A DNA stretch of 64,000 nucleotides from an uncultured Thiomicrospira sp. (GCA_965195345.1 OZ239628.1:1711553-1775552); one strand, 5' to 3'; positions 5,503 to 30,168 are shown, counted from the stretch's first letter. Numbers and translations are program-made. The notes: generated by a model not told the origin, from the sequence alone.

Positions 5503-5524
5503 AACACTTTGATCGTTCACAGCA

Positions 5525-9326: not shown

Positions 9327-9968
9327 TTATTGGGCTGATATAGGATTGAAATTTAATCGTTTTTTTAACTTAAACAAATGCTCGTATCCTTCCCCTCCTG
9401 GTACATTTTTTTCTTTATTTGAAAGGACATGTTCAACTTCAAAATATCTTTTGCATTCACTGTAAACATCTTCTGCAGTTAGGGAGAACGGAGGCGATTT
9501 TTCGCTGTTATGCTCCAATGCGATCAAAAAAACTTCTCCATTATCACGCAATAATTCAGCAATTTTTGCCAAATAATCATCCCGCATATGCTTTGGAAGT
9601 GCGATCAATGCTGCTCGATCGTACACTGCATCAAAATCATTGGCATAGGTAAAAAAGTCCGTACAGTGAACGAAAAGGTTTTGGCATCTATATACTTGTT
9701 CAGCGTTATTCTTTTGTATTTGCGCCTGTAAACCCGTTTCTGCAAAAAACGATTCTATAGCGTGTTGATTAATTTCCACTGCGTGCGTCTCAACACCAAG
9801 ATTCTTAAAAAAAACCATGCATTGCGCCTTGCCACACATTGGAACCAAAATCTTTTTAGGCTGACCCATCACTTCCTTCCAATATCTAATCAACAACGGA
9901 TGCATGCCTCCCAAATCAAAACCAATACGGTTTTCATGCCAACGACTATTCCAATATTCAATATCCAT
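9327..9968 (-). CDS. tpm: thiopurine S-methyltransferase family (SAM-dependent)
   Basis: EYWNSRWHENRIGFDLG...LVPMCGKA pattern typical of bacterial TPMT. Likely start at the internal Met (MDIEYW); the track ORF extends to 10013. Confidence 0.7.
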   Translation of the reverse strand: MDIEYWNSRWHENRIGFDLGGMHPLLIRYWKEVMGQPKKILVPMCGKAQCMVFFKNLGVETHAVEINQHAIESFFAETGLQAQIQKNNAEQVYRCQNLFVHCTDFFTYANDFDAVYDRAALIALPKHMRDDYLAKIAELLRDNGEVFLIALEHNSEKSPPFSLTAEDVYSECKRYFEVEHVLSNKEKNVPGGEGYEHLFKLKKRLNFNPISAQ

Positions 9969-11415
9969 AATCAAAAAACCGTTGCATTGTTTCCTCGCTT
10001 CCCAAAATAGCAAAATCTATACGAGCACGAGTTAATGCTGTGTATAGTAGCGAACGCATGAACAATCGTTTATCCATAGTGTCATCGACCCAAAGCCAGA
10101 CGCCATCAAACTCAGATCCTTGCGACTGATGAACAGTAAGAGCCCACGCTTGAGAAAAGTAAACAGAAGCCTCATCTATCAATATCGCTTTGTTCTCATG
10201 ATTAAAAACCACCAAAAAATCCCCTTTCTCGCTTGTGACCTTAAAGCCTTGATCGCCTTTTGAGTATTGCGAACCACTTCCTTCCAATATAATCGGCAAA
10301 ATGCCTGCTAAGGCAAAAAAACTGGACAAATGGCTGTTAATTGCCATCAATCCTTTGCTCCCTTTACGTTGAGGAGTCAGCAGGGCAAATCGTGACTGAC
10401 TATTCAATAACTCTTGCCATTTTTCTTCTTTAACTAATTCTTGCCAATTTGCAACTTTGTCTGAATAAAGTTGTTCTAAATGCTGAACTTTATTTGCTTC
10501 TCCCAAAAATAATTGAGCATGCATGTCTTCTGCTTTGAAGACTGAAAACTCATTATTGAGAACCGCTAGAGCAAGACGGTCTATTCGACTATCACCGCCA
10601 AAACGGTAACGTTGCTGTAAATACACTATATTTGCAGGCTGATACTCTTCAACCAATTGAATGACACCCCCTAATTCGACACTATCAAGCTGATTTGCAT
10701 CCCCCATCCAAACAATGTGCCGTACCCATTTGCTTGCTTTGAGTAATACAGATGCTAACTCAAGAGTGAGCATTGAAACCTCGTCCACTACTACCAAATC
10801 GTAGGGTATTGATTCAACCTTAGCATTCACGTCTGATCCAAGACCGAGAATATTATGCAATGTGCCAACAGTAATATTACTGGCGTTATTATTTTTACTA
10901 AGCGATTCTCGTAATCTTGAAGCTGCTTTGTTTGTTGGGGCGCAAAGAGCAATATCTATGTCAGATTTTTGACTGATGCAGTACTCAACTAAATGCGTTG
11001 CAATAGTTGTTTTCCCAGAACCTGGTCCTCCGCAAATAAAGTTAAATCCACTTTGTAAACTTTTCTCTATTGCTTGATTCTGCTCTTCCCCTAACGCTGG
11101 AATAGAAGTATAAGCGGTTTCTATTCTTTCATTGCAACGATCCCGCAAAAGGTTTATTATGTTTTGTTTTGCTTGCCAGAATCGACCTGGAACCAATAAA
11201 TCTTCCTCAATCACCCAAGGTGCTAAGGTTGTTTTCACTATCGGCAATCCATACAATACTTTGCGATCAATTGACGGCGGAATCTGAACACCATACGTCG
11301 AATTTTCAAGACACTCAATAAACGCATCATCAAGAAAATCAATAACCGCATCAGGAGCGTCGACTTTAAAAGACTTTAATAAATTCCGTGTTAAATGCAC
11401 TTCAATCCGAATCAA
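9958..11415 (-). CDS. SF1 RecD/Pif1-like ATP-dependent DNA helicase
   Basis: Walker A GGPGSGKTT, Walker B LVVVDEVSM, C-terminal TVHQSQGSEFD...YTALTRAR motifs of the RecD/TraA helicase family. Confidence 0.75.
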   Translation of the reverse strand: MIRIEVHLTRNLLKSFKVDAPDAVIDFLDDAFIECLENSTYGVQIPPSIDRKVLYGLPIVKTTLAPWVIEEDLLVPGRFWQAKQNIINLLRDRCNERIETAYTSIPALGEEQNQAIEKSLQSGFNFICGGPGSGKTTIATHLVEYCISQKSDIDIALCAPTNKAASRLRESLSKNNNASNITVGTLHNILGLGSDVNAKVESIPYDLVVVDEVSMLTLELASVLLKASKWVRHIVWMGDANQLDSVELGGVIQLVEEYQPANIVYLQQRYRFGGDSRIDRLALAVLNNEFSVFKAEDMHAQLFLGEANKVQHLEQLYSDKVANWQELVKEEKWQELLNSQSRFALLTPQRKGSKGLMAINSHLSSFFALAGILPIILEGSGSQYSKGDQGFKVTSEKGDFLVVFNHENKAILIDEASVYFSQAWALTVHQSQGSEFDGVWLWVDDTMDKRLFMRSLLYTALTRARIDFAILGSEETMQRFFDYGY

Positions 11416-12583
11416 ACATTAACCGAATATTGTGAATAGCTTGACGGATACGCTGGGGATTTTCAATAAGACTAAATCGTACATGCGTGTCACCTAAAGC
11501 ACCAAAGCCTATCCCAGGGGATACTGCGACCGACGCATCCTTGATGAGTTTTTTAGAAAACTCTAATGAGCCCATATGTTGATATTTTTCAGGAATACGA
11601 ACCCAAGTCATCATTGAAGCTCTGGGAGGAGTCACTTGCCAACCAATACTATTCAGCCCTTTACATAAAGTATCTCTGCGCTCACGATACATGTTGACTA
11701 TTTCATCAACACAATCTTGAGGCCCTTCAAGCGCTTGAATTGCCGCAACTTGAATGGGTGTAAACGTCCCATAGTCCATGTAAGACTTTATTCGTGCCAA
11801 AGCAGCGACTAATTTACTATTTCCAACCATAAAACCCACACGCCAGCCAGGCATGTTGTAGGTCTTAGATAATGAATAAAACTCAACCGCTAATTCTTTT
11901 GCACCTTTCACTTGAAGCACTGACGGCACTGGATCGCCTTCATAAATAATGTCCGCATAAGCCAGATCATGAATCAACCAAATTTCATATTTTCTACAAA
12001 TTGCCACAACCTCTTCAAAAAACGAAAGATCCACACACTGTGATGTCGGATTACTAGGGAAGTTCAACACTAATGCTTTCGGTCTTGGAGTAACTGAAAT
12101 AAGGGAATACTTCAAATTTTCAAAAAAAGCCTCAAGATCATCGTCTAAAGCAACATGTCGCACATCGGCTCCAGCAATTACAAAGCCATACGTATGAATT
12201 GGATAACATGGATCAGGAACCAGTATAGTATCACCAGGACCTGAAATAGCCATTGCCAAATGCGCTAACCCCTCCTTTGAACCAATGGTAACAATTGCCT
12301 CACTTTCAGGATCAATGCTTACATTAAATTTCGTAGCATAACGACGACACATTGCTCTACGTAATGCTGGAATTCCTCGGGATTGGGAGTAGCGATGTGT
12401 ATCATCACGTCTTGCCGTTTCAACGAGCTTATCAACAATGTGTGTTGGGGTTGGCTGATCAGGATTTCCCATACCAAAGTCAATGATATCCTTACCTTTT
12501 TTTCTTTCCAAAGTACACAAGCTTCCGATGACGTTGAATACGTAAGGAGGCAATCGTTTTATTCGAAAAAAATCATCATTCAT
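11402..12583 (-). CDS. PLP-dependent aminotransferase class I/II (AlaC/AspC-like)
   Basis: NFPSNPT and SLSKTYNMPGWRVGF (PLP-lysine region) motifs; 393 aa. Confidence 0.8.
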   Translation of the reverse strand: MNDDFFRIKRLPPYVFNVIGSLCTLERKKGKDIIDFGMGNPDQPTPTHIVDKLVETARRDDTHRYSQSRGIPALRRAMCRRYATKFNVSIDPESEAIVTIGSKEGLAHLAMAISGPGDTILVPDPCYPIHTYGFVIAGADVRHVALDDDLEAFFENLKYSLISVTPRPKALVLNFPSNPTSQCVDLSFFEEVVAICRKYEIWLIHDLAYADIIYEGDPVPSVLQVKGAKELAVEFYSLSKTYNMPGWRVGFMVGNSKLVAALARIKSYMDYGTFTPIQVAAIQALEGPQDCVDEIVNMYRERRDTLCKGLNSIGWQVTPPRASMMTWVRIPEKYQHMGSLEFSKKLIKDASVAVSPGIGFGALGDTHVRFSLIENPQRIRQAIHNIRLMFDSD

Positions 12584-12675
12584 TTTAAAATCTCGGTTAC
12601 ATACTCCTTGAGTGCAACTTTTGCCAATTAATTATACAAACGACGCGCAGGTTCGACAACAGGGAGCATGGTTAT

Positions 12676-14604
12676 ATGGACGTACTAAATAGACATGACA
12701 ATTATACAGAAACCAAGTTAATCAACTCAAACGAATCGAGGAAAATGATTATGATCCAGAAACACCCCTTACTATCTATACTGCCTATACTGCTCATAAC
12801 TATGAGCTCCTACGCATCCGCCACTAAGGTCAACTGGTACGACTGGAATAAATCAGCTTTTGAACAAGCAAAAAAAGAAAAAAAAATGATCCTCATCAAT
12901 GTTGGTATGGAAGGCTGTGCCGCATGCGCTCGAATGGATAAATTTACTTACGACGATCAGAGCGTAGCAGACATAATCAATAAGTACTTTATTCCTATCG
13001 CTGTTGACAGCGAGGCACGCCCTGATATTGGCGAGCGCTACTCCGATTGGGCATGGCCTGCCACTGCCTTTTTAAGCCCCGATGCAGTACAAGTCTTCGC
13101 TATGGCAGGTAATCGTTTTCCCAGAAACTTTATCCCTATTCTCAATGATTTGATCGACAAGCAAACCAAAGGCATACTAAAACCCGATCCTAATTCACCG
13201 TATGCCGCGCCACCTAAACCAGTAAAAACTGCACTTGACGACATTCGCAATCAAATTCGTAACCAATTAGATCGCAATCTAAACGAGAGTAATGGTGGCT
13301 GGAGCAATAGTGCCGTTAATATGGAATACAGTGGTTCTCGCTTGCGCCATCTCCTCTTTCGTAGCCATTTATACGGCATGCAAAATCTTGAAAAAATTGC
13401 TTTGAAAACCGTTGATAATTATGTACGTTCGATTGATCCAGTCTGGGGAGGAGCTTATGAAGTTGTATTCCACCAAAACGCCAAAGTACCTCAGCGCTTT
13501 GAAAAAATAAGAGCAATTCCTGAAAAGAGAATTTCTTCACAAGCCAATGCCATAAGCGGTTTTGCATTAGCATATCAATTAACAAAAGATGAAAAATACC
13601 GCAAAGCAATGAAGTCAATGTCGTCATTTTTGCATAACTGGTTCACATCGCCCAAAGGATTGTTCTACACGAATCAAAAATCAGAACCAATCGAATTCCC
13701 TGATAATTTGCAAATGCAAGATTATTGGGTTATTGAAGATGATGCAAAGCGTCGCGCTTTAGGCATTCCACCAATTGATCATGCCACCTATACCGACCAA
13801 AATGGCGAGATGATATCGGCGTTAGTACTTGCATTTGAGGCTTTTTCCGATCCTCGTTACAAGGCAATGGCAGAACGCACTGCTAAAGAATTGTTACGCA
13901 CGCGTACCCATAAAGATGGCTGGATGATAAACGCTCAATTAAACAATCGCGTGGTTAATGATGCTCGCATGCGTCCCTATGACATAACTCAACGCCCCTA
14001 CTTGAGCACTCAGGCTAAATTCGGACAAGCACTGCTTGATCTCTATCGCATAAATGGGAATAGCGAATTACTCATTGCTGCTCAACGCATTGCCGATGCC
14101 ATGATAGATCAATTAGGAGATAGTGAGAATGGAGGCTTTTGGGGAGCACCATTAGATGATGTATCTGCGCTTATAGCTCCAAGAAAACCCATTGAAGATA
14201 ATGGCAGTGCTATTTCCTTTTTATATGACTTATCCGTTTATGTTAAAGAACCAAAGTATGAAGAAATCGCACGCCTTGCCGCTCAAGGTATATCTGATCC
14301 ATCCATACTAAGACGAGAAGGAAAAATCACTGCTCACTTAGGGTTAGGGTTAGAGAAACTAAGTGCTGAGTACGTCGAGTTTTCTATCGTAGGCGATGAA
14401 AACGATCCAGCTGCCAAAGCACTTTATCAAGCAGCAAACCATGTCTATCACCCACGAAAAATCGTTCACTTTGAAAAGCCAGGACGATACCCGAAAAAAG
14501 ATTTTGCTGCAGCATACATCTGTAATCCAAATCGCTGTTCAGTGCCATTAAAAACGCCTGAAGAAGTTGTTAAAGTCGCGGAAAGTTATCGTTCGCCTCA
14601 ATAG
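12676..14604 (+). CDS. thioredoxin-domain protein of the DUF255/YyaL family (N-acyl-glucosamine-2-epimerase-like C-terminal barrel)
   Basis: N-terminal signal peptide then thioredoxin-like block (MILINVGMEGCAACARMD...IPIAVDSEARPDIGERY). Probable true start at the internal MIMIQKHP, about 12745. Confidence 0.7.
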   Translation: MDVLNRHDNYTETKLINSNESRKMIMIQKHPLLSILPILLITMSSYASATKVNWYDWNKSAFEQAKKEKKMILINVGMEGCAACARMDKFTYDDQSVADIINKYFIPIAVDSEARPDIGERYSDWAWPATAFLSPDAVQVFAMAGNRFPRNFIPILNDLIDKQTKGILKPDPNSPYAAPPKPVKTALDDIRNQIRNQLDRNLNESNGGWSNSAVNMEYSGSRLRHLLFRSHLYGMQNLEKIALKTVDNYVRSIDPVWGGAYEVVFHQNAKVPQRFEKIRAIPEKRISSQANAISGFALAYQLTKDEKYRKAMKSMSSFLHNWFTSPKGLFYTNQKSEPIEFPDNLQMQDYWVIEDDAKRRALGIPPIDHATYTDQNGEMISALVLAFEAFSDPRYKAMAERTAKELLRTRTHKDGWMINAQLNNRVVNDARMRPYDITQRPYLSTQAKFGQALLDLYRINGNSELLIAAQRIADAMIDQLGDSENGGFWGAPLDDVSALIAPRKPIEDNGSAISFLYDLSVYVKEPKYEEIARLAAQGISDPSILRREGKITAHLGLGLEKLSAEYVEFSIVGDENDPAAKALYQAANHVYHPRKIVHFEKPGRYPKKDFAAAYICNPNRCSVPLKTPEEVVKVAESYRSPQ

Positions 14605-14642
14605 AGTGGTGTAGAGCTCTTCTGCATCTTCTTTTCCCTGAT

Positions 14643-15062
14643 ATGGTTTCAACTCAAACCTTCCACATTGATCATCTGCATCCCCGTAGCGCGTTTGAAA
14701 AAAAGATGTTCAAATCATATAATTTCCTGCAAAGTAACGAGACATTACATGGATTTTTCTCTGATTCAAAGCATTGGAACTCCATAGCAAATCTTCATTT
14801 ACTCAATGGCTCGCCGAATCAATCAAAAAGTGACAGGCCTTTAGCTGAATGGCTCAATGATAACAATGTCAATTTGCGAGCACAAGATCTGCTTGTTGAA
14901 GAGGTTAGTTTAGACTTCGAAACGTTCAAAGAGTTCTATGAAAAACGAAGGGCAAACCTAAAAGAAAGATTGAAAAGCCGTGTGTTCATGTCAGCGCAAT
15001 TATCATTGCAACCAAAAGCTGAAGACTCAGATGATGAAGTGGCAAGGGATGCAAATATTTAA
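14643..15062 (+). pseudogene. C-terminal fragment of a DUF1524/HNH(His-Me finger)-type nuclease (GmrSD/DUF262-partner-like)
   Basis: HIDHLHPRS...N...LLNGSPNQSKSD resembles the DUF1524 catalytic block. Only 139 aa; no N-terminal DUF262-type domain; begins right after the upstream gene. Confidence 0.4.
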
Positions 15063-15282
15063 TATAGTTGCTTTATTTTAAATTTTATGTACGAGCAGCC
15101 ATGATTGATTTATCCCAATTCAACACAATTGTGAACAAGCACCAAGCAATAGATCAATGATTTGGTGATGTTGGATCAACCATAGGCATTCCTCAGGAAA
15201 TTAACGACTGCTGCAAAGGCTAAGTACTTTTTGCAAGTCCAGCAAAAGTTGTGTGCAATTGAACTAGTACTTGTTAGTTTTA

Positions 15283-15471
15283 TTAATTATCAAACCCTGA
15301 CACTCTTTTTAATTCTAAAATACCGTCTTGTCGCACTAAAAAAGTTGTACCGTTCTTTCTTTCAAGTCGATATGATTTAGGGGTTTTCTTTATATACTTA
15401 ACACCACTTTCATAATTTATATCGTATTTTCCAGTGCTAAATACAATATCGTAATAACTACCTATATTCAT
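15283..15471 (-). CDS. hypothetical small protein (possibly a gene fragment)
   Basis: 62-aa ORF in a low-coding-density stretch (15.06-15.8 kb). Confidence 0.2.
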   Translation of the reverse strand: MNIGSYYDIVFSTGKYDINYESGVKYIKKTPKSYRLERKNGTTFLVRQDGILELKRVSGFDN

Positions 15472-15818
15472 TCTTTCGCCTTAACTTGATAATTTTTTTA
15501 ATCTACGATTCTTGTTAATTTTCAAACAAAATTATTAAGATACTTTTGTTCTAAATTTCAATAAATTCAATCTCAATAAATTCATGCTTCATTATCAGAT
15601 AATCTATATCTGAATATTTTAGATTGCTCAGCATTATAATTACTCACCATTTTACTAACCGATGAAACCACTAAAAAAACTTTCCCACCGAGAAGTAGGA
15701 AGTGATAATTTCAACAGTAATAACAATCTGCAAAAACTTTGAACCAATGATTAGCATTCGCAAGTTCGCCTGATCGAAGAAGCTTTTCACCAAGAAATGT
15801 AGAATTAGGAAACATAAA

Positions 15819-16325
15819 ATGGGATCACAAGACAAGAAAAATATAAATCAATTTACTCCACAAGAAACTTTTAAAATAGCAAAGGAGACGCGTGATTTTG
15901 AAATTAAGTTATTTTGGCAGCGTACGAATTATTTTTTGCTACTTAATTCTGCTGTTGCTGGTGCTTTTTTATATTTTATGAAGCCGACGGAAGACGTCGT
16001 AGTATTACAAATTGCATTCTGTGTTATTGGTGGTTTTGTTTGCTTGGCATGGATAAAGGTAGGTTTAGGTAGTAAGTATTGGCAATCACATTGGGAGCAA
16101 GTGCTCGTTGACTTACAGAAAAGATTTGACTTGTTTGAGGACGATCTTTTTAGTGACAAGAAAACCGACGAACGAGTTAGGAGAAATTTAAAAATGGAAA
16201 GTTGCTACGATCACTGCGTTCTTAAAAAACCTTCTGTAAGTCTGTGGATGCACCGCACCGCACGTTTCTTTTTACTGATTTGGATATTTGCTTTCTTCTA
16301 CACAAGTTGTCAATTGGTCGTGTAG
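15819..16325 (+). CDS. hypothetical membrane protein (about 3 TM) in the defense island
   Basis: 168 aa: hydrophilic N-tail, 2 TM helices, charged linker, third C-terminal hydrophobic helix. AGGA-type RBS is absent but ATG is preceded by an A-rich leader. Confidence 0.45.
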   Translation: MGSQDKKNINQFTPQETFKIAKETRDFEIKLFWQRTNYFLLLNSAVAGAFLYFMKPTEDVVVLQIAFCVIGGFVCLAWIKVGLGSKYWQSHWEQVLVDLQKRFDLFEDDLFSDKKTDERVRRNLKMESCYDHCVLKKPSVSLWMHRTARFFLLIWIFAFFYTSCQLVV

Positions 16326-16360
16326 CTTACTATGTTTTATGACTTAAAAAGCACCCAAAA

Positions 16361-16519
16361 ATGGAAAGGCTGATAGTTGTGACGCTCTTTCTTGCTTTGA
16401 TGGGTGGGTGTGCTAAAAATTCCAAATTAACATCTAAAAAGGAAATTATAGGTTTAAAACCAGCGCTTAGCAAAAGCCAAATAAAGGATATAGCTTATGA
16501 AACCACACATATTTATTAG
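16361..16519 (+). CDS. putative small lipoprotein (52 aa)
   Basis: MERLIVVTLFLALMGGCAKN: signal peptide plus lipobox LMGGC. Below the track length cut-off; found by reading. Confidence 0.3.
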   Translation: MERLIVVTLFLALMGGCAKNSKLTSKKEIIGLKPALSKSQIKDIAYETTHIY

Positions 16520-16664
16520 TCATTGTCATAAAGACAATAAAAAGTATCTGAATGGACTTGCAGAAACATCAAAACAGTTTAATTCTGCTAGATCTCTGCC
16601 AGATATATCGATTTGGTGGGATGGAAAAATTTCCGCTGGACAAAAATTTAACTTCAGAAAATAA
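16497..16664 (+). pseudogene. TIR-domain N-terminal fragment (55 codons)
   Basis: MKPHIFISHCHKDN...LPDISIWWDGKISAGQKF matches the TIR betaA-alphaA-betaB core (hFISHxxxD ... hxhWhDxxxhxxG) and then stops; the remainder of the domain is absent. Confidence 0.4.
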
Positions 16665-16713
16665 ACCATCGATGTTTTATTTGATTTAAAAAGTCAAGTC
16701 AATAAGGATTCCT

Positions 16714-19149
16714 ATGAGTATTAAATTATCGGATATGATTGAAGGGATTGACCCATCAAATACTGTGTTGTTCTTCGGCGCGGGCTCATCAATTCCTTCT
16801 GGTGCGCCTAGCGTTACTAAGATTAGTGAGAGCATTTCACAGAAATTCAATATAGATTCTACAGGATACGACTTAGCTGAATTAACAAGCCTCGTAGAAC
16901 AAAAGAAATCAAGAGGCGAATTAATCAATTGCCTGCGAGACATGTTTAATAGAATAAGAGTTACTGGCGCTCTGCTTAATTTGCCCCTGTACAATTGGAA
17001 GAACATATACACGACAAACTATGACAAGCTCATTGAGCAGTCATATCAGAAAAAAGAAAAACCAATATCTGTAATAACTTCAAACTATGACTTTAGAGAG
17101 CAAAAATATCCAGAAGCAACGAAGCTATATAAGTTACATGGCTGTATCGATAAAGACAAATCCGATGGAAATCACAGCAGAATAATAATTTCTGAATCAG
17201 ATCACGACAATACATCTGAATATCGTGAAGCATTGTGGGACGCATTTAAATTTGATCTAAATGGTGGGAGCGTTGTTATTATTGGTTATTCGCTTGCAGA
17301 TATCCACATTAAAAATCTGATTGATCGTGCTATTTCAATCAAGAACAAGTCATCAGACACTCCAGCATCCATAAACTTAGTCTTATTCGAAAAAGACGAG
17401 ACGCGCGCATCTTTACTTGAAAGAAGAGGCATTAAGGTAGCATTTGGCAGTGTCGATAATTTTTTTGTTGAATTGCAAAGAAAGAATACTCCTAACCCAA
17501 TAGTTCATAAGTCGACAGGTGACCCTCTTGATAATCAATATGAATTGCAACCCATTACCTTGAAGGTTGCAGATGAGCTTCGTAATATTGAAAAAAACGT
17601 AAGCGCAATGTTTCAAGGCTGGCCTGCGACCTATTCCGATATCAAAGCGAACCTGACCTTCGAAAGAAGTATAGCGAGAAAAATAGACTCGTATTTTAAT
17701 TCAGACAACTCTTTATGCGCTTGTTTGCTCGGGGCTAGCGGCATGGGCAAGAGCACTACTGCACGTAAAGTAATGCTAAGACTTAAAGCCTCAGGGCTTC
17801 ATTGCTGGGAGCATAAAGGCAACCACAAGTTGCTTTATCGTGAATGGCGATCCGTAGCCGTTGAGTTAAAGACAAGAGAGGAACGAGGGATTATTTTTAT
17901 TGATGATGCACACAGTCATTTGCATGAAATAAATAATTTGGTTGATCTTTTGTCAGCAGATGATAATTACTACTTAAAGATTATTCTCACATCAACCAGA
18001 AACCATTGGGGTCCTCGAGTTAAAACTGCTAATTTATTCACGAAAGGGAAGGAATTTTTATTAAAGAAATTAGATCAAGTTGAAATTGAAGAGCTACTAT
18101 CTTTAGTGGAATCTCATTCAGACCTACAACCCCTGATTGAAAAAAGTTTCTCTGGTTTTTCCAGATCAGAACGAAAAAAACGGCTTGTTGCAAAGTGTGA
18201 ATCGGATACGTTTGTATGTTTAAAAAATATTTTTGCCTCTGAACAATTTGATGATATTGTGTTACGTGAATTCGCTGAGCTAGATAATGATCTTCAGGAA
18301 ATATATAGAATCGTTTCAGCTCTGGAAACCGCAGGGGTAAATGTTCACAGACAGCTAGTCGTCCGACTTCTTGGGCTCTCCCCAGATACTCTGTCTGCTT
18401 CTCTAATTAATTTAATTGATATCATTCACGAGTATTCGATAAGCGAGCGTGAAGGAATTTATGGATGGAAAGGACGCCACTCCGTCATTGCCGAGATTGT
18501 CACTAAATATAAAATGGTTGATGAAGAAGAATACTACAAATTATTTGAGACTGTTATTGATAACATAGTCCCAACGTATGATATTGAAATCAGAACAATA
18601 AAGCAGCTCTGTGCATTTGATGCTGGAATTAGTCGATTTCCAGACAAGTATGCACGTAATAAATTACTTAGAAAAATGATCTCAAAAGTACCTGGAGAAC
18701 GAGTTCCCAGACATAGATTAATTCGTTACTTGATCGATCTTAACCAGTTAGAGAAAGCCGAAACTGAAATAAGGATATTCGAAAATGATTTTAAATCTGA
18801 AGGACCTTTAGAGCGCTACAAAATACTTCTTTTGTTGGCTCGGGCTGAAAAAAAGACTGGGATTCTATCTGATGATCGAATGGCTATTTTGCAGATGGCT
18901 AAAGAAAAAGCTGTCATAGCTGTAGGTCGATATAAAAATAATAAAAATATACTGAGGATCTATGGTGATGTTGGTCTAGAAATATACAAGCAATCACAAA
19001 ACTCCACAGTTTTCGAAGACTCCATGGAACATTTGAAAGAAGCTGAAACCCGGTTGGTTGACCCAGATGTTACGATTTCGATTATGTCGTTAGAAAGACA
19101 GTTTTCGAAGCTTCAGTCTGAATTTACGGAAGTCACAGATGCGCTTTAA
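16714..19149 (+). CDS. SIR2 (SIR2_2/ThsA-type) - NACHT/STAND NTPase - helical repeat sensor protein (bacterial NLR-like antiphage protein)
   Basis: N-terminal domain has FFGAGSSIPSGAP, TTNYDKLIEQ and KLHGC motifs of the defense-type SIR2 family. Middle domain has Walker A GASGMGKST, Walker B GIIFIDDAH and a NACHT-like ILTSTR motif. C-terminal roughly 300 aa are predicted helical repeats. RBS AAGGAT precedes the start. Confidence 0.8.
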   Translation: MSIKLSDMIEGIDPSNTVLFFGAGSSIPSGAPSVTKISESISQKFNIDSTGYDLAELTSLVEQKKSRGELINCLRDMFNRIRVTGALLNLPLYNWKNIYTTNYDKLIEQSYQKKEKPISVITSNYDFREQKYPEATKLYKLHGCIDKDKSDGNHSRIIISESDHDNTSEYREALWDAFKFDLNGGSVVIIGYSLADIHIKNLIDRAISIKNKSSDTPASINLVLFEKDETRASLLERRGIKVAFGSVDNFFVELQRKNTPNPIVHKSTGDPLDNQYELQPITLKVADELRNIEKNVSAMFQGWPATYSDIKANLTFERSIARKIDSYFNSDNSLCACLLGASGMGKSTTARKVMLRLKASGLHCWEHKGNHKLLYREWRSVAVELKTREERGIIFIDDAHSHLHEINNLVDLLSADDNYYLKIILTSTRNHWGPRVKTANLFTKGKEFLLKKLDQVEIEELLSLVESHSDLQPLIEKSFSGFSRSERKKRLVAKCESDTFVCLKNIFASEQFDDIVLREFAELDNDLQEIYRIVSALETAGVNVHRQLVVRLLGLSPDTLSASLINLIDIIHEYSISEREGIYGWKGRHSVIAEIVTKYKMVDEEEYYKLFETVIDNIVPTYDIEIRTIKQLCAFDAGISRFPDKYARNKLLRKMISKVPGERVPRHRLIRYLIDLNQLEKAETEIRIFENDFKSEGPLERYKILLLLARAEKKTGILSDDRMAILQMAKEKAVIAVGRYKNNKNILRIYGDVGLEIYKQSQNSTVFEDSMEHLKEAETRLVDPDVTISIMSLERQFSKLQSEFTEVTDAL

Positions 19150-19524
19150 CAAAAGCATGTTGTCGGAGGAGTAGTTTTCTACTACGCCTCATTTAAAAAA
19201 ATGAAATACCTTTATCTCGAAATGCAATTATATTTAACAGAATTTGGAAGATGATTTGAGAGCGGACAATCATATACATTTTTAAGTAATACTAAGATTA
19301 ATATACTGACCTTCCCAGTTTTCTAAGCGCTCTTTTTGAAATAGTTTCTTCTTTGTTCTTAGTCCTCCCCACTTTACACCTGCGGGGGTATTGTGCGCCC
19401 AATGAGGATTGGGATATGATGGCACATGTCACTTTTGGAAAAAGTATAATTCACGCCGTGCCGTGCATCGTCCCTTCGCGAAGCACTTCAATTTTAAGTG
19501 GCCAATGATTGTGGTGCCAAACAA

Positions 19525-19839
19525 TTAGGGCGTTCTCAAATACCGATACATTGTAGGCTTAGTAATGCCAAACTGCTCACAAATACTAATGATTGAAACT
19601 TGCTTGCTGTCATAAAGAATTCGCATCTGCTCTATTTGCTTTTTAGTTAGTTTAATTTTTCTACCACCCTGCCTTCCTCTTGCTCGAGCAGCTTCGAGCC
19701 CTGCTTTAGTACGTTCTTTAATAAGTGTTCGCTCAAACTCAGCAAGTGCTGCAAATATATGGAATACTAACTGACCACTAAGCGTAGAAGTTTCAATATT
19801 CTCTGTTAAAGAATGAAAGGCAACTCCATTTACTTTGAA
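19525..19839 (-). pseudogene. serine recombinase (resolvase/invertase) C-terminal fragment
   Basis: minus-strand translation ...GQLVFHIFAALAEFERTLIKERTKAGLEAARARGRQGGRKIKLT...FGITKPTMYRYL is the E-helix plus HTH of the Tn3/Hin resolvase family. No start codon, an in-frame stop lies immediately upstream, and the catalytic N-domain is missing. Confidence 0.6.
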
Positions 19840-20063
19840 TTAGTAACAGTATGAAATAACTCCTATGATGAGCAAAGTGGCAGAATTGATTAATGTCAGT
19901 TTCTGCGGTAAGAAAAACAACCGTTGATTAATACAACAATACAAGCACACAAAAATCATGCTTTTAAAAATCATAATCTACTTTCATGGCAATAACCAAT
20001 GATATGTAAAGAGAACTTTTACATTAACTGGTAAATATCATTGCGCAAAGCTACAATACAAGC

Positions 20064-20855
20064 ATGCTCAATGCTTTGTATATAGCCTGTATTTTCAGCT
20101 TCGCCTCACTTATTGTTTTATTTCTTACTACAGCAAAAAAAACAAGACAGTTGCGAGCAAGCAGTGTGCATTGGTTCTTGATTGCTTTTGCGACATTTTT
20201 TCAGGCAACATTATTAACATTACTGATTGTTCAAGAGACGCAAATCCTTCTCGGATTTTCAAACGCAACGATGTTAGTGTCATTTTGCATCTGGTGCATG
20301 ACACTGCTTTTAATGCGCTTAAGCAATACTGCTTACTCGTTGCTTCTATTGTCTTTTTTAAATATTTTCGTCTATTTATTCGCTTGGCTTTCACCCGATT
20401 TGAACGCTGTAGTCATCCGTGGGGAAACCGCCTTTCATGTTGTTCTTTCAATTCTTTCATACAGTATAGTAGGACTAACTGGGTTGCAAAGTATTATTCT
20501 ATTAGCAACAGAAAATATGCTCCATGAGAAAAGAGGACTAAAGCTCCTTTCACTACTCCCTTCGCTTAATGAATTAGAAAATGCGTTGTATTTTTTACTT
20601 TGGATGAGTTTCATCAGCTTAAGTATTGCCCTATTTAGCGGGTTCTTAGTGCTTGATGATATGTTCGAACAACGCGTAGTACACAAAACTTTTCTTTCGC
20701 TACTGTGCTGGGGAATGATCGCTGTACTACTGGTTTTGAAATTGACTTGTGGCTGGCGTGGCAAACAACTAAGTATTGGCATTATGCTATCGACTTTAAT
20801 ACTTTTTTTAGGATTTTCGGGTTCTAAATTCATTATTGAAAGGCTATTATCCTAA
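20064..20855 (+). CDS. inner membrane protein of the cytochrome-c-assembly (CcsA-like) family, YpjD-like
   Basis: 263 aa, 8 TM; family resemblance to YpjD/CcsA-like proteins. Confidence 0.5.
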   Translation: MLNALYIACIFSFASLIVLFLTTAKKTRQLRASSVHWFLIAFATFFQATLLTLLIVQETQILLGFSNATMLVSFCIWCMTLLLMRLSNTAYSLLLLSFLNIFVYLFAWLSPDLNAVVIRGETAFHVVLSILSYSIVGLTGLQSIILLATENMLHEKRGLKLLSLLPSLNELENALYFLLWMSFISLSIALFSGFLVLDDMFEQRVVHKTFLSLLCWGMIAVLLVLKLTCGWRGKQLSIGIMLSTLILFLGFSGSKFIIERLLS

Positions 20856-21160
20856 TGAAATCAGCTCAGTTTAAAGGCGTATTTGACTCTTCTTCAACGC
20901 TTTCACGTCTCTACAGCCGAGCGGCCTACCAAAATCGCATCCTGAAAATTTTGCACAAACATCTTCCTTTTCCCAAACAAGCTATTAGCGCCTGTTTTCT
21001 TTCAAAAGAGGTTTTAACCATCTATTGCCCCGACGGCACTTGGATGACACGTCTACGATTGCGCACCGACCAAATCCTGCGTACACTGCATGAAGAGGCG
21101 AACGATGAAATTCCTCACAATGTGAATGAAGTTATTGTTGAAATAAAATACCCTTCTTGA
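20855..21160 (+). CDS. small protein, possibly DUF721/DciA-like
   Basis: 101 aa, start overlaps the upstream stop (ATGA); weak family resemblance only. Confidence 0.3.
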   Translation: MKSAQFKGVFDSSSTLSRLYSRAAYQNRILKILHKHLPFPKQAISACFLSKEVLTIYCPDGTWMTRLRLRTDQILRTLHEEANDEIPHNVNEVIVEIKYPS

Positions 21161-22605
21161 ATTTTCGATTGATCAATCTAAGTCATTTCAGTATTCGTGA
21201 GCGTCGTATGCTCATTGGGACGTTATTTGCTGCGTTCTTCCTCCATGTGTCTTTGTCATTCATTCAACCTTTAAGTGCCGATGAAGCACACTATGCACTT
21301 TACGCTTTACACCTTGACTGGAGCTACCTCGATCATCCACCTTTAGTAGGTTGGCTGCAAGCACTCATCCTACCATTTGACAGCAATGACTGGGCGCTAC
21401 GATTTATTCCTAACATCCTCCATTTAATGACAAGTATCGGGCTAATTGCATTGTGCAATGCGCTTTATGGGGAAAAAGCAATGATCGCCTTAGGCAGTGT
21501 TATTTTGTATCAATTGAGTGTTATTTTTCAAATACTGGGATTGGGTATGACGCCAGAAACCCCACTACTGGCATTAGGTGTTTGGAGTTGTGTATTTGCT
21601 CTATATACTTGTCGCCACGCAACACTGAAGAACTGGATAATACTTGGTGTTCTCTTAGGCTTCATGGGATTATCGAAATACACTGCACTCATGTTTGCTA
21701 TTGGTTTAGGAATATACTTCATTTCTCAAAAAATGATTTGGTGGCGTGATTATCGTTTTTTCATAGCAATGACAATAGCAGTGCTTATGATCATGCCCGT
21801 TTTATATTGGAATTTCAATAACGAATTTATTTCATTTAATTATCAATGGGGACACGGAAATATTAATGCCAAAGGTTTTCATCTTAATAGTTTTTTAAAT
21901 GCCCAAGCGTTCCAAGCTCTGCTATACACACCTGTACTATTCATCGCATGCTGGGTTTTTTCTATACAGGGATTATGGAAAAAAGATAAACTTTTTTTAG
22001 CTTGCATTAATTTACCAACACTATTGCTATTCGCGTGGTCATCAACCAAAGGAGGGCATTATTTGCCACACTGGACTGCTTTACCTTTATTAATTAGCAT
22101 TCCTTTTGTATCTAAATGGATAAGTGAAAGTTGGCAAAATAATAAGCGATTCATTGCATGGTCCCACTTGATTGTCAGTGGTAGTCTATTAATAATTTTT
22201 GTTCTCTTAATTACGGGCTGGCTACCAAAATCAATCAATCAAGTAGCCTTAAAAGATTTGCGTGGTTGGAAAGAAATAGCCTTAGTGGCTAAAAAATTGG
22301 TAATTAAATTACCAACAAATCAGCAAAATATTTATATAGATAATCGATGGAATGCCAGTCGCATTGCTTGGTATGCTAGACCAATTCCGTTGGTACTCTT
22401 GGATAAGCGCCCTTCTCAATATCAACTATGGGCAGAACCTTTCGCCAATACAGAAGGTGGGATTGTTGTTACGAATGACGACTCGTCAACAAGTGATATT
22501 GCTCGTATTTACAGCCATTTTGACAAGTGCGTTCTGGTAGAAACGCGCTCTTTCGACTCACAAGAAGGTATCAGTCGTTTTCAATTACACTATTGCCAAA
22601 AATAG
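21157..22605 (+). CDS. glycosyltransferase family 39/83 (ArnT/PMT-like, polyprenyl-phosphate-sugar dependent)
   Basis: N-terminal DEAHYALYA...DHPPL loop motif characteristic of GT39/ArnT; about 11 TM. Confidence 0.75.
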   Translation: MNFRLINLSHFSIRERRMLIGTLFAAFFLHVSLSFIQPLSADEAHYALYALHLDWSYLDHPPLVGWLQALILPFDSNDWALRFIPNILHLMTSIGLIALCNALYGEKAMIALGSVILYQLSVIFQILGLGMTPETPLLALGVWSCVFALYTCRHATLKNWIILGVLLGFMGLSKYTALMFAIGLGIYFISQKMIWWRDYRFFIAMTIAVLMIMPVLYWNFNNEFISFNYQWGHGNINAKGFHLNSFLNAQAFQALLYTPVLFIACWVFSIQGLWKKDKLFLACINLPTLLLFAWSSTKGGHYLPHWTALPLLISIPFVSKWISESWQNNKRFIAWSHLIVSGSLLIIFVLLITGWLPKSINQVALKDLRGWKEIALVAKKLVIKLPTNQQNIYIDNRWNASRIAWYARPIPLVLLDKRPSQYQLWAEPFANTEGGIVVTNDDSSTSDIARIYSHFDKCVLVETRSFDSQEGISRFQLHYCQK

Positions 22606-22651
22606 TAATTTAGTTGACACAATCCACTAATTCAAATGCAGACGCTTCAAG

Positions 22652-25429
22652 TCAGATTTTACCGTGACAATGTTTGTATTTTTTACCTGATCCACAAGGG
22701 CAAGGCTCGTTGCGACCAATCTTTTTCTCATCACGTTTAATAGGTTCTGGTGATGGATTAGATTGTTGATTATTTTGATAATCTTGCTTTGATGCTGGCT
22801 GAGGACGACGCATGGTTTCAGGAAGGTCCTTTTGAAGACTGCCCAACGCTGATGCATCATTTTGGCGCCGTTGTTCATCCATTGCTTCCACATCGCCTTC
22901 ATCGCGTAATTGAACAAAACACAGAACTTTTGTTACGTCATGTCGAAAATTATCAAGTAATTCCTCAAACATTTCAAAAGCTTCTTTTTTGTATTCTTGT
23001 ACGGGATTGCGTTGTGCGTATCCACGTAGATGAATCCCTTGACGCAAATAATCAAGTCCTCCAAGATGCTCTTTCCATAAGTTGTCAAGCACTTGCAATA
23101 ACACCGCCTTTTCGAAGTGTCTAATAACTTCAGCACCAACTAATTGCTCTTTCTCTTGATGCGCAGTATCGATATTTTCTAATATGCGCTCTCTTAAGCC
23201 TTCTTCAGCAAGCAGGTCATCTTCATCCAACCATTGTTGCAAAGGTAATTTAACGTTGTATTCTTCTCGCAAAATCTCTTCCAGAGCTGGAATATCCCAT
23301 AAATCAGCTATACTTTTTGGAGGAATATAATCAGCAATGGTCGCCTCAACATCCTCATTGCGCAGATTAACAACGTAATCCTTCCAATCATCCTGAGACA
23401 TTATGTCATTGCGTTGTTGATAAATCACTTTTCGTTGTTCATTAACCACATTATCGTATTCCAATAATTGTTTCCGAACTTCAAAATTGCGCCCTTCCAC
23501 TTTCTTCTGAGCATTAGCAATCGCCTTATTAACCCAGTTATGCTCAATAGATTCTCCATCTTTGAGCCCAAGCTTCTCCATCATGCCTCGCATTCTTTCG
23601 GAGGCAAATATGCGCATCAAGTCATCTTCAAGAGATAAATAGAAAATACTACTTCCTGGGTCTCCCTGTCTGCCAGAGCGCCCTCGCAGCTGATTATCAA
23701 CCCGTCTTGATTCATGCCTCTCTGTTCCAATAACATGCAACCCACCCAAAGAGATGACTTCTTGCTGGTTAGTTTTTGCTTGCTCGCGCAACCCGCTAAT
23801 TTTTTCTATCTCATCAATGTCAATTTGCTCAATTTCAAAATCAACATTACCGCCCAATACAATATCTGTGCCCCTACCCGCCATATTTGTCGCAATAGTT
23901 ACTGACCCCTTCCGTCCAGCTTGCGCTATGATTGATGCTTCTCTTTCGTGATTTTTAGCATTTAATACTTCGTGTTGAATTTTTGCCCTATCGAGCGCAG
24001 CAGAAAGTTTTTCTGAACTGTCTATTGACGCTGTCCCTATAAGTACAGGCTGTCCTGAAGTATTAATCTCACCCACATGCTTAGCAAGTGCAAGAAATTT
24101 TTCCTCTTCATTTAGATAAATTAAATCACTGTGATCTGCTCGTTTGATTGGCTGATTTGATGGTATTACTACAACAGGTAAGTTGTAAATTTGCTGAAAT
24201 TCCACGGACTCTGTATCAGCCGTTCCAGTCATTCCTGCGAGCTTGCCATATAGTCGAAAATAATTCTGAAAAGTAATGGAGGCGAGCGTTTGATTTTCAT
24301 TTTGTACTGGGACATTCTCTTTCGCTTCGATTGCTTGATGTAGACCATCTGACCAACGTCGCCCTTGCATTTTACGCCCAGTAAATTCATCAATAATAAC
24401 GACTTCCTTAACCCCTTCCTCATTGGTTTCAATGATGTAATCTTTGTCTCTTTCGTACAAAGCATGCGCTCTTATAGCCGCATTGATGTTTTGCATAATG
24501 TTGATATTACGCGCATCGTATAGATTTTCGCCGTCTTTCAATAATCCTTTGTTATTCAAATATTTTTCAATTTTTTCATGCCCATCTTCCGTCAAAGTAA
24601 CTGAACGATTTTTCTCATCAAGTATATAGTCGCCAACTTGGTAATCATTACTGGGAACGCCATCCTTATCGACTTCACCAAGCTGTTTTTTCAATAACGA
24701 GGGTATGCCGTTTAGTTTTGAATATATTTCAACATTACCTTCTGAAGGCCCAGAAATAATTAATGGTGTTCGTGCCTCATCAATTAAAATCGAATCCACT
24801 TCGTCAACTATAGCAAATGCAAATTTACGTTGCATTCGATCATCAGCTGAAAAAGCCATGTTGTCTCTTAAATAATCAAACCCAAATTCGTTATTTGTTC
24901 CATAAGTAATGTCAGCATTGTATTGTCGGTATTTATTCTTCCACATTTGTCCACTCAAAATAACCCCAACACTCATACCAAGAAACTTGTACAACGTACC
25001 CATCCATTCAGAGTCTCTTTTCGCCAAATAATCATTCACAGTGACTACGTGCACCCCCTCTTCTGTCAAAGCATTAAGGTAAACGGCGAGCGTAGCAACG
25101 AGCGTCTTGCCCTCACCAGTACCCATTTCGGCAATTTTTCCTTCGTGCAACACCATACCACCTATCAATTGCACGTCAAAATGACGCATCCCAAGCACGC
25201 GTAAGCTTGCTTCTCTACACACTGCAAAAGATTCAGGCAACAAAGCAGTTAACATTTCACCCTTTTTAAGGCGCTCTTTAAATTCATTGGTTTTAGCAGC
25301 CAACTCATTATCACTAAGCGCTTGCATTCCGGATTCAAGCGCATTAATTTTCTCAACGGCTTTCTGATACCTCTTAACTTCGCGCGAGTTACTTGTTCCA
25401 AACACAGAACTCAAAATTTTATTTAGCAT
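22652..25429 (-). CDS. secA: preprotein translocase ATPase SecA
   Basis: 925 aa; DEAD-like motor motifs ([22 protein letters not shown]) and C-terminal zinc finger [14 protein letters not shown]. Confidence 0.97.
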
Positions 25430-25954
25430 GTTTAAATTAGATTATTTATCAGTGCTCGCATTCTCATCCCATTCTCGAAAATGCACGCAGTAACTTAATT
25501 TTTGTTGAAACGTTAAAAAATATACAACCCCAGTTGTAATTTTAAACAAACAATAGCTTGGTGCGTTATTTTAATTCACAGCGGTTATTTTAATTCGTCA
25601 ATTGTCTTATTACTTCTTAGTAATTTTGATATAAAAACATGAAATTTATACTTCCATTTCCAAAAATTGGGCATATTCACGTTAAAAACACGACTGATTG
25701 TTAAGAAAACTTCTTTAGAATTGCGCTTCATCACTAATGCGATAAATAGGAAGCAATATGCTTAGTATATCAATATAATAGATGACTTTTATTAAACTTT
25801 CACTTTACTTTATTTTTCCTAATCTTCCACAAACTGAGCACCTTGGAAAGTCAATCTTTCTTGATAATCCAATTTTTATCCTTTAAAATGATTGGTTAAT
25901 TCTACGAAGAAAACACGGTTTTTTAAACAAAATTATAAAATGGAGTTCTACAAA

Positions 25955-26971
25955 ATGAAATTATCAACACTTGTACTTGCTGTAACAGCAAGTTTCATGG
26001 CTGCTGGAATAGCATCAGCCAAGTCAACACTGGAGTCTGTTAAGGCCAAAGGTTTTGTTCAATGCGGCGTTAGCACAGGATTACCTGGGTTTTCAACTGC
26101 TGGTGGTGACGGAAAATGGAGTGGCATTGATGCCGAATATTGTCAAGCGGTTGCAGCTGCGGTGTTTGGAGATCACAATAAAGTACGCTACACCCCTTTA
26201 ACAGCTAAAGAACGTTTTACAGCGCTTTCGTCTGGAGAGGTGGACATCCTAAATCGTAATACTACTTGGACAATGCTTCGTGACACTCAGCTTGGTATTA
26301 CCTTTGCTGGCGTTAACTATTATGACGGTCAAGGCTTCCTCGTTTCTAAAAAACTTGGCGTTAGTAGCGCAAGTGAAATGAATGGTGCGAGTTTTTGTAT
26401 CCAAGCTGGTACAACTACAGAGTTGAACCTTGCGGACTTTTTCCGTTCAAAAGGCATGAAGTTTACAGCGATTACATACGATACTTCAGCACAATCTAAA
26501 GATGGTTTTGAGCAAGGACGTTGTAATGCATTGACTTCTGATCAATCGCAATTGGCAGCTATTCGTTCACAACTTAAAAACCCTGATTCAGCTGTTATCC
26601 TACCTGATGTTATCTCTAAAGAGCCTCTAGGACCAGTAGTTCGCCAAGGTGATGACCAATGGTTCAAAATTGTTCGTTGGACACACTTTGCACTTTTGAA
26701 TGCTGAAGAATTGGGTGTTACTCAAGACAATGTTACCAGCATGAAATCTTCAAGCAATCCTGGCGTGCGTCGCTTACTTGGAGTTGAAGGTGATTTTGGA
26801 GTCAAGCTAGGTCTATCCAATGACTGGGCACTTAATGTCATTAAATCAGTAGGTAACTACGGTGAAGTCTTCAGACGTAATGTTGGAGCTGGTTCTATCC
26901 TAGGTCTACCTCGCGGCATTAATAACTTATGGAATAACGGTGGTGTTCAGTACGCGCCACCAGTTCGTTAG
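25955..26971 (+). CDS. general L-amino-acid ABC transporter substrate-binding protein (AapJ/BztA-like)
   Basis: signal peptide MKLSTLVLAVTASFMAAGIASA then SBP type-3 fold; start chosen at the internal Met with signal peptide. Confidence 0.8.
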   Translation: MKLSTLVLAVTASFMAAGIASAKSTLESVKAKGFVQCGVSTGLPGFSTAGGDGKWSGIDAEYCQAVAAAVFGDHNKVRYTPLTAKERFTALSSGEVDILNRNTTWTMLRDTQLGITFAGVNYYDGQGFLVSKKLGVSSASEMNGASFCIQAGTTTELNLADFFRSKGMKFTAITYDTSAQSKDGFEQGRCNALTSDQSQLAAIRSQLKNPDSAVILPDVISKEPLGPVVRQGDDQWFKIVRWTHFALLNAEELGVTQDNVTSMKSSSNPGVRRLLGVEGDFGVKLGLSNDWALNVIKSVGNYGEVFRRNVGAGSILGLPRGINNLWNNGGVQYAPPVR

Positions 26972-26985
26972 TTTTTAGAACGAAG

Positions 26986-27021
26986 AAAGGATCCATCATG
27001 TTTTTGATGGATCCTTTTGTA
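26986..27021 (+). terminator. rho-independent terminator after the binding-protein gene
   Basis: perfect 13-bp stem AAAGGATCCATCA/TGATGGATCCTTT with 6-nt loop followed by TTTGTATTT. Confidence 0.55.
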
Positions 27022-27136
27022 TTTAAGTATATATTTCCATTAACCACATGATGATCATTAATTTTTTAGACATAAAATAGTTAGAAAATAAAATTTAAAA
27101 AATGAACACTAAATCATCTATCCTAATAAGTACAGC

Positions 27137-29400: not shown

Positions 29401-29418
29401 TAAAACCATTTAAAAATT

Positions 29419-30168
29419 ATGAAAGAAAATACTGAAACGGTTATATCTATAAAAAAGATGAATAAGTGGTATGGGGATTTTCACGTACTTAACGATATAG
29501 ACCTTGACGTTCATAAAGGTGAAAAAATCGTTATATGTGGCCCTTCTGGTTCTGGAAAATCAACACTGATTCGTTGTATCAATCGTCTTGAAGCACACCA
29601 GAAAGGCGAAATAATTGTTTATGATCGCGAGCTAACCGACGACATTAAATCCATTGAGCACGTGCGCCATCATGTTGGAATGGTCTTTCAATCTTTCAAT
29701 CTTTTCCCTCATTTAACTGTTTTGGAAAACTTGATGCTTTCTCCAAAATGGGTGAGCAAAACACCAGATGCTGAAGCAAGAGAAACGGCTCTTAAATATT
29801 TGAGCCGTGTTAAGATTTCCGAACAATCTGATAAGTACCCTGGTCAACTGTCTGGTGGGCAACAACAACGTGTTGCTATTGCTCGCGCTTTGTGTATGAA
29901 TCCTGACATTATGCTCTTTGATGAACCAACTTCGGCACTTGACCCTGAAATCATTAACGAAGTGCTTGAAGTCATGATTGAACTAGCAGAAGGTGGTATG
30001 ACTATGTTGGTGGTCACTCATGAGATGGGCTTTGCAAGAAAAGTAGCCGATTGTGTGATGTTTATGGATCAAGGTGAAGTAATTGAAAGATCCTCTCCAG
30101 AACAGTTTTTCACCAACCCTGAAAGTCCGAGAACGCAAAAGTTTCTCGAACAAATAATCACACACTAA
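29419..30168 (+). CDS. amino-acid ABC transporter ATP-binding protein (GlnQ/AapP-like)
   Basis: Walker [10 protein letters not shown], signature [15 protein letters not shown], Walker [12 protein letters not shown]. Confidence 0.9.

Follow-up and report, generated by a model that had tools for sequence, protein, structure and literature searches.

A strain-variable interval with a probable defence gene and pseudogene remnants in an uncultured Thiomicrospira

Between a DUF255/thioredoxin-like gene and a ypjD-like gene of the cytochrome-c-assembly family, the genome of an uncultured Thiomicrospira sp. holds an intact gene for a SIR2-STAND NTPase amid pieces of a nuclease gene, a TIR-like open reading frame (ORF) and a serine recombinase gene (Table 1). 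The locus lies in a 64-kb stretch of DNA, referred to here as the window, from a source contig of ~1.9 Mb, and all coordinates are those of the whole window unless another contig is named. How did this mixture come about, and is it, as a preliminary description of the DNA proposed, a defence island that arrived on a mobile element and has since been eroded? The reading we favour, at a probability of roughly three in four, is that the DUF255–ypjD interval is a strain-variable hotspot holding a mosaic of horizontally acquired defence DNA with old, truncated edges.

Shared flanks and unrelated interiors in two strains

The evidence that carries this reading comes from a sister strain, L091, represented by a 179-kb contig from another ENA sample on which the ypjD-like protein is 100% identical; a homolog search with this protein had returned nothing beyond the protein itself. 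Window positions 9975–14617 correspond to L091 1–4643 and positions 19415–30855 to L091 9352–20792, both at 98.8% identity, and the DNA between these flanks, 4797 bp in the window (14618–19414) versus 4708 bp in L091, is unrelated. With flanks this similar around unrelated interiors, the interval is a strain-variable hotspot, in which closely related genomes carry different content between the same conserved borders. The L091 interior, which is probably a derived replacement, contains three ORFs without a family match and a gene for an EamA transporter, and has no PADLOC match. A GTDB scan with the DUF255 protein returned best relatives of 74% identity, with no synteny on either side and no definable empty site, and a JGI metagenome scan found nothing above 54% identity. 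The comparison of relatives thus yielded a second allele of unrelated content, but no empty site.

The strain-specific DNA is also distinct in composition. The GC content of positions 14618–19414 is 36.0%, essentially the lowest among 4.8-kb windows (mean 39.2%, standard deviation 1.4), and ORFs of at least 150 residues cover 54% of positions 14605–20063 (5.46 kb), compared with 87% of the remaining window. At the same ORF length, the gaps at 14605–15818 and 19150–20063 are the second and third largest within the 64 kb. The collapse in coding density and the two low-coding gaps that had been described between the DUF255 and ypjD-like genes are therefore real, as are all the other features on that list, with small corrections to their coordinates. 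The proposal that the interval is occupied by variable DNA of foreign origin that carries defence genes is likewise borne out by its low GC content, by the unrelated L091 content and by the occurrence of SIR2-STAND homologs on a plasmid-like contig.

Both edges of the interval are partly shared between the strains. On the left, identity with L091 reaches 13 nucleotides (nt) past the DUF255 stop codon and takes in the first 8 nt (TGTAGAGC, C-R-A) of the nuclease homology. On the right, the module that extends up to the ypjD start, with the recombinase stub inside it, is 94% identical between the strains, compared with 98.8% in the flanks; over the stub region the figure is ~93%, against ~99% for the flanks, and the stub diverges ~5-fold more than the coding flanks, a divergence that we read as about that expected of an unconstrained pseudogene. 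L091 has two copies of the stub, at 9352–10000 and, more diverged, at 7262–7954, the latter running into 29 nt from the start of ypjD, after which the EamA segment begins. Both start at the same residue as the stub in the window, and both contain a common frameshift near codon 41–46. Given this shared truncation and frameshift, together with the shared 8 nt on the left, the sequences indicate that both truncation junctions most likely predate the strain split. Since the recombinase stub is part of sequence that a strain with different cargo also has, it is an old relic that is not attributable to the arrival of the present cargo.

Two further observations concern this comparison. In L091:7262–10029 (compare window 19398–20092), a module of ~690 bp, made up of the resolvase stub, the region upstream of ypjD and 29 nt of ypjD itself, is present twice in direct orientation, with copies 95.7% identical to each other that flank a 1.4-kb segment with the EamA transporter gene, an arrangement compatible with homology-facilitated illegitimate recombination or with a duplication-insertion event. 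Elsewhere in the window, the intergenic region upstream of secA (25663–25912) is 94.4% identical to L091, versus ~99% in the neighbouring coding DNA, probably owing to relaxed constraint.

Table 1. Features of the DUF255–ypjD interval and its borders, in window coordinates
Feature	Position	Strand	Remarks
DUF255/thioredoxin-like gene	ends 14604		left neighbour of the interval
BrxU/GmrSD-like (DUF262-DUF1524, PADLOC HEC-05) type IV restriction nuclease gene, 3′ fragment	14610–15062	+	147 codons and stop
Left junction, shared (98.8% identical) to strain-specific DNA	14617/14618		13 nt after the DUF255 stop
AT-rich stretch without recognisable genes	15063–15818		30.7% GC; between the nuclease fragment and the 8xMP gene
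8xMP-family membrane protein (PF24838, octameric membrane protein family), intact	15819–16325	+	168 residues, three long helices
ORF with lipoprotein-type signal (LMGGC)	16361–16519	+	52 residues; unverified gene
TIR-like ORF, resembling the N-terminal third of a TIR domain (IFISH...IWWDGKISAGQ)	16497–16664	+	55 residues; weak support
SIR2-STAND NTPase (nSTAND5) with long C-terminal region, Avs5-like single gene, intact	16714–19149	+	811 residues
Non-coding cargo tail, strain-specific	19150–19397		after the SIR2-STAND gene
Perfect 6-4-6 palindrome CCCAAT-GAGG-ATTGGG (CCCAATGAGGATTGGG)	19398–19413		right-hand junction
Shared module up to the ypjD start	19415–20063		GC patch, resolvase stub and ypjD upstream region; twice in L091
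GC patch CACGCCGTGCCGTGCATCGTCCC	19452–19474		within the shared module; ordinary sequence conserved in all three copies
Serine recombinase (resolvase/invertase), C-terminal 103 codons	19528–19836	minus	end of the catalytic domain and HTH_7
ypjD-like gene (cytochrome-c-assembly family)	starts 20064		right neighbour of the interval

Truncated genes at the edges and intact genes within

The nuclease at the left edge had been described as an HNH/DUF1524-like C-terminal fragment, and every search agrees with that. It matches only the extreme C-terminus of its relatives, at positions 484–595 of 600 in PADLOC HEC-05 (E 7e-27), positions 471–583 of 584 in PHROG 17051 and residues 469–578 of 587 in the BrxU structure 7P9K; HEC-05 denotes a BrxU-type GmrSD-like type IV restriction enzyme (bioRxiv 10.1101/2024.01.29.577857). 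Against a 621-residue DUF262 protein from an E. coli plasmid, the alignment is ungapped to the C-terminus at 44% identity, and nt 14610 corresponds to residue 475, with CRALLHLLFPDM pairing with residues 475–486. Homology therefore begins 33 nt upstream of ATG 14643, in the translation that precedes this codon, and the 139-residue ORF listed earlier (14643–15062) starts at an internal ATG that lacks a Shine-Dalgarno sequence. The gene is cut 5 nt past the DUF255 stop codon, and nothing homologous to the DUF262 (ParB-like NTPase) domain lies upstream of nt 14610. About 76% of a nuclease of ~600–620 residues is missing, comprising the DUF262 domain and the linker in full as well as the initial third of the DUF1524 domain, and the His-Me finger domain that remains is incomplete, with PF07510 (GmrSD_C) matched at positions 49–104 of 138 and at 14 bits, against a threshold of 23.

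The recombinase near the right edge is also what it had been taken for, the C-terminal half of a serine recombinase without a start codon. The Pfam Resolvase profile is matched at positions 92–144 of 145 only, the C-terminal helix-turn-helix is present (HTH_7, positions 1–43 of 45, E 5e-11), and a stop codon lies directly upstream; the first ~90 residues, which form the catalytic N-terminus with the nucleophilic serine, are gone. The stub matches the DNA invertase family PHROG 125 at E 7e-33, is 54–60% identical to plasmid resolvases and has relatives of at most 57% identity in a scan of viral contigs, and no res- or hix-like site was recognised. It had been proposed to mark one edge of the island, which does not agree with the strain comparison: strain-specific DNA ends at 19398–19415, at least 113 bp beyond the 3′ end of the stub. 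The nuclease and the recombinase are 5′-truncated pseudogenes, the former down to its last 24% and the latter to its C-terminal half, and, as they match only the C-terminal parts of full-length families, they are truncated remnants rather than short genes of a different nature.

The third fragment, the 55-residue ORF, is probably a TIR remnant, judging from its resemblance to the start of that domain. Two PADLOC ThsB models match it at E 0.004–0.005, at N-terminal positions only, and the best plasmid tblastn match is to residues 4–43 of an annotated TIR protein, albeit at E = 2, which agrees with the TIR fragment proposed earlier; set against this, Pfam gives no match even at E ≤ 10, and the PDB gives none. 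When 1.84 billion representative proteins were searched exhaustively with phmmer, spurious repeat proteins were all that came up. At about a third of a whole TIR domain, the ORF is too short to contain all of it, and the catalytic part would be absent. We infer that none of the three fragments, of nuclease, TIR and recombinase, is functional.

Of the two intact genes, the larger is the SIR2-STAND gene described previously, and its product is full-length. Its N-terminal domain matches SIR2_2 (PF13289) at E 1.4e-26, its NTPase matches the Pfam profiles nSTAND_NTPase5 (E 1.6e-13) and nSTAND3 (E 4e-4), and the ~370 residues that follow the NTPase have no Pfam match; NCBIfam gives a weak Dsr2 match only. 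The translation contains Walker A (GASGMGKST) and Walker B (IIFIDD) motifs, and its TTNYD and LHGC motifs align with the T140/N141/Y142 region of EfAvs5. The closest solved relative is 9JAP, the EfAvs5 filament (PMC11897194), aligned over SIR2 and NOD at E 1e-13, and the domain layout equals the Avs5 architecture described for PaAvs5 (PMC12931631). By analogy with characterised Avs5 proteins, a putative helical domain at the C-terminus may sense a phage protein, after which the protein would oligomerise through its STAND NTPase, and the SIR2 domain would deplete NAD+ and cause abortive infection. The gene would thus represent the only plausibly working defence function left at the locus.

The distribution of its homologs points to a gene that moves by itself. 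They number 353 at E ≤ 1e-5, and the best-scoring among them are mostly ~805–815 residues long with full coverage; the closest, at 73–80% identity, come from Microbulbifer, Cocleimonas, Halomonas, Methylophaga and metagenomes, and one from Pseudomonas aeruginosa shares 59% identity. By comparison, the DUF255 protein, encoded by the neighbouring core gene, has no GTDB relative above 74%. Nucleotide similarity to the homologous loci is confined to ~16696–19166, reaching no more than ~18 nt beyond either end of the ORF, and each of the four other loci examined has different neighbours; hence, the gene behaves as a self-contained single-gene unit. On a relaxase-bearing, plasmid-like contig, a homolog lies beside an intact resolvase gene and a GmrSD_C or KAP NTPase gene. 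Contigs of this type are near-identical over ~44 kb and differ in the cassette on the resolvase side (L081/L082 versus L083, ~2700–5650): one type carries GmrSD_C, two small genes and a 190-residue resolvase, and the other a KAP NTPase and a 285-residue resolvase, from which it appears that defence cargo is swapped beside a resolvase on a plasmid-like element too.

The second intact gene had been described as encoding a two-transmembrane protein. The ORF is real, but its product has three helices rather than two and is an intact member of the 8xMP family: the match to PF24838 is full-length (profile positions 2–134 of 136, E 8e-26, 90.9 bits with a cutoff of 30), the start of the protein aligns with the starts of its homologs, and the invariant family residues are kept. 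The AlphaFold model (pLDDT 85) has three long helices or hydrophobic segments and matches no solved fold, there is no sequence match in the PDB, and we found no literature on the family or description of its function. The homologs are found as solitary genes in Vibrio cholerae contigs rich in toxin-antitoxin cassettes, in an integrase/AlpA island, and beside type IV secretion system or defence genes in related metagenome-assembled genomes of ~2 Mb. The closest of them (55–60% identity), on two contigs from such genomes (L087:10001–20552 and L089:10001–20549), edge a TrbC/VirB8/CagX type IV secretion cluster, and in one case DUF900, AAA-CSD, GmrSD_N and DUF4268 genes lie between the 8xMP homolog and the cluster; this locus may be another variable defence spot. 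Both intact interior genes thus recur on mobile DNA elsewhere, as accessory genes that stand by themselves. The word 'eroded', which had been applied to the island, is apt insofar as genes were truncated by deletion or replacement, but the fragments that survive in this strain are still ORFs, and the 8xMP and SIR2-STAND genes are intact.

The rest of the interval contains little that can be recognised. The 52-residue ORF with the lipoprotein-type signal has no homologs in Pfam and NCBIfam searches. In the AT-rich gap, a 62-residue ORF on the minus strand (15283–15471) has a plausible AAGG ribosome-binding site and no match in Pfam, PHROG, NCBIfam, PADLOC or plasmids, and may represent either a small orphan gene or a chance occurrence. 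In the same gap, upstream of the 8xMP gene, a 15-nt unit is tandemly duplicated at 15554–15583 (AATTTCAATAAATTC / AATCTCAATAAATTC), in two copies only. Scans of the window for tRNA genes and Rfam families found none, and a promoter and terminator scan gave results at chance level only. Farther along the window (44825–51005), four tandem paralogous ORFs of 221–222 residues (44825–45490, 45801–46469, 46511–47179 and 47221–47886) are followed by an ORF of 1014 residues, and none of the five has a Pfam match at E ≤ 1e-5.

Junctions and alternative explanations

The palindrome had been placed at 19393–19408 and suggested as leftover element-end sequence. It exists, at slightly different coordinates (Table 1), and coincides with the right-hand junction, where homology to L091 begins at 19398 for the internal copy and at 19415 for the flank copy; however, neither L091 copy preserves it, both being degenerate (CCTAATGCGGATTGTG and TCCAATAAGGGTAAAT). 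The predicted single-strand fold of the region is no different from that of shuffled sequences (z −0.34), and a second palindrome-like site in the window, with 3 mismatches, is at chance level. The GC patch, for which the same origin had been suggested, lies inside the shared relic and not at an element end. A Tn3-type terminal inverted repeat, considered on the basis of a GGGGG run at 19384, was rejected: sister-strain homology starts 14 nt further in, and the copies there lack GGGG. A repeat search across the island found short, chance-level repeats only, with no significant flanking repeats.

The arrangement of these junctions raises the alternative of a site-specific integration hotspot, in which the 3′ end of DUF255 or the palindrome region would be the attachment site and the recombinase would have acted in cis, having since been lost, or in trans. 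We consider this unlikely, though it deserves to be weighed, since three unrelated sequences (the cargo of the window, cargo A of L091 and the L091 EamA segment) all run up against the module on its left side, over a span of at most 17 nt, and share no homology further left. Moreover, the last 20 nt of DUF255 (TATCGTTCGCCTCAATAGAG) weakly resemble TATTGTGCGCC-CAAT-GAG at 19388–19405, across the right junction, and a similar GCCTCCAATAA occurs at the L091 flank junction. The resemblance is slight: its score is reached by 42 of 1000 shuffles, and that of a longer 35-nt junction query by 88 of 8528 windows within the 64 kb, so that p is ~0.03–0.04, and this in one strain only, as the similarity is non-significant in L091 and absent at its internal copy. 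Neither cargo has an integrase, the palindrome is not conserved, and the start of the nuclease fragment only 5 nt past the DUF255 stop is more readily explained by a deletion than by an element end that is still intact. The narrower proposal, in which 19398–19415 and the DUF255 3′ end form a genuine recombination or attachment site where unrelated cargos are swapped or stacked by a recombinase supplied in trans, is a long shot; if true, it would explain both the meeting of three sequences at one boundary of at most 17 nt and the diverged second stub module of L091.

A different account would dispense with remnants in the interior, making the 8xMP gene, the lipoprotein ORF, the TIR-like ORF and the SIR2-STAND gene one functional operon, a Thoeris-like combination of TIR, SIR2 and membrane effector in which the small ORFs are genuine subunits. 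The four ORFs are indeed co-oriented and closely packed (successive ORFs are 35 nt apart, overlap by 23 nt and are 49 nt apart), with Shine-Dalgarno-like AAGGA/AGGAA sequences before the 8xMP, TIR-like and SIR2-STAND starts, and the best PADLOC match of the SIR2 domain is ThsA, the small ORF weakly matching ThsB. We nevertheless judge such an operon very improbable, because SIR2-STAND homologs occur at four other loci without an 8xMP, lipoprotein or TIR neighbour, their similarity stops ~18 nt upstream of the ATG, the neighbours of 8xMP homologs are unrelated, and the search of 1.84 billion representative proteins brought up no genuine homolog of the 55-residue ORF, which spans roughly one-third of a TIR domain. 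Hardly credible at all is an artefact of chimeric metagenome assembly, in which case the interval would exist in this form in no cell. The assembly does come from an uncultured organism, with exact proteins found on a single 1.92-Mb contig, but an independently assembled contig of another sample is collinear with it on both sides and also has the stub module and 13 nt of identical sequence after the DUF255 stop codon. The junctions are located in intergenic or pseudogene DNA, and no repeat able to cause a mis-join was found.

We therefore return to a strain-variable hotspot with mosaic defence cargo, for which the following history may be envisaged. An element or plasmid segment with a nuclease and a recombinase would have entered the site in an ancestor, and its ends would then have been lost by deletion. 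The interior would later have been remodelled through further insertions or replacements, one of which may have put the SIR2-STAND gene where the rest of the TIR gene had stood, and in the sister lineage the interior would have been replaced altogether. Several observations weigh against this reading. The cargo is bounded by no intact mobility gene, terminal repeat or clear attachment-site (att) duplication, so that, apart from the recombinase stub, the interval has neither intact mobility machinery nor flanking att direct repeats. Neither an empty site nor a third strain was found, so that the order of events, including which interior is ancestral, is tentative. The TIR assignment is statistically weak, and the surviving fragments are still open frames in the window strain, which makes residual function or expression possible. 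As regards the defence gene itself, PADLOC matches the SIR2-STAND protein to 23 families at E ≤ 0.1, of which none is Avs-named and the best is ThsA, and its NTPase fits nSTAND5 better than the nSTAND3 of characterised Avs5.

Comparison with known systems

Each component of the locus can be set beside a characterised family. The nuclease fragment aligns with BrxU/GmrSD enzymes over their C-terminal 110–147 residues, including the DH..P His-Me finger motif, but has none of the preceding domains; from its sequence, the ORF is a remnant and not a member enzyme of this family. Similarly, the recombinase stub retains the end of the E-helix of the catalytic domain and the HTH_7 DNA-binding domain of small serine recombinases, but differs from them in the loss of the catalytic serine and is frameshifted in the sister strain. 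The membrane protein, in turn, resembles PF24838 members over its full length, and the recurrence of this family in cassette-, island- and secretion-cluster-adjacent contexts is a minor lead.

The likeness to Avs5 is closer. The SIR2-STAND protein shares with it the single-gene organisation, the order of SIR2 (PF13289), STAND NTPase and a presumably helical C-terminal region, a size of ~810 residues and intact SIR2 and Walker motifs; it differs from EfAvs5 in its low sequence identity. The SIR2-nSTAND5 clade to which it belongs is another minor lead: its hundreds of ~810-residue homologs, some of them from Pseudomonas and marine gammaproteobacteria, travel as a lone gene. Annotators should label the nuclease, TIR-like and recombinase ORFs as remnants of pseudogenes and not as defence genes, which leaves the SIR2-STAND gene as the only credible defence function at the locus.

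Defence islands in strain-variable hotspots between core genes are known in the pangenomes of E. coli, Vibrio and Pseudomonas. The DUF255–ypjD interval resembles them in its ~99% identical flanks, in the similar-sized, unrelated cargo of two strains, in its lower GC content and in its combination of defence genes, pseudogene debris and a recombinase remnant; it differs in having no intact integrase, tRNA or clear att repeats, in being represented by two alleles only and in a sister allele without recognisable defence genes. The locus is an ordinary defence island in a variable hotspot; such islands with pseudogene debris are already well known, and the SIR2-STAND gene is a further member of a known family. 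Among them, it offers a clean two-allele case of cargo turnover, at a hotspot whose edges predate its interior and in a genome of reduced size (~1.9 Mb).

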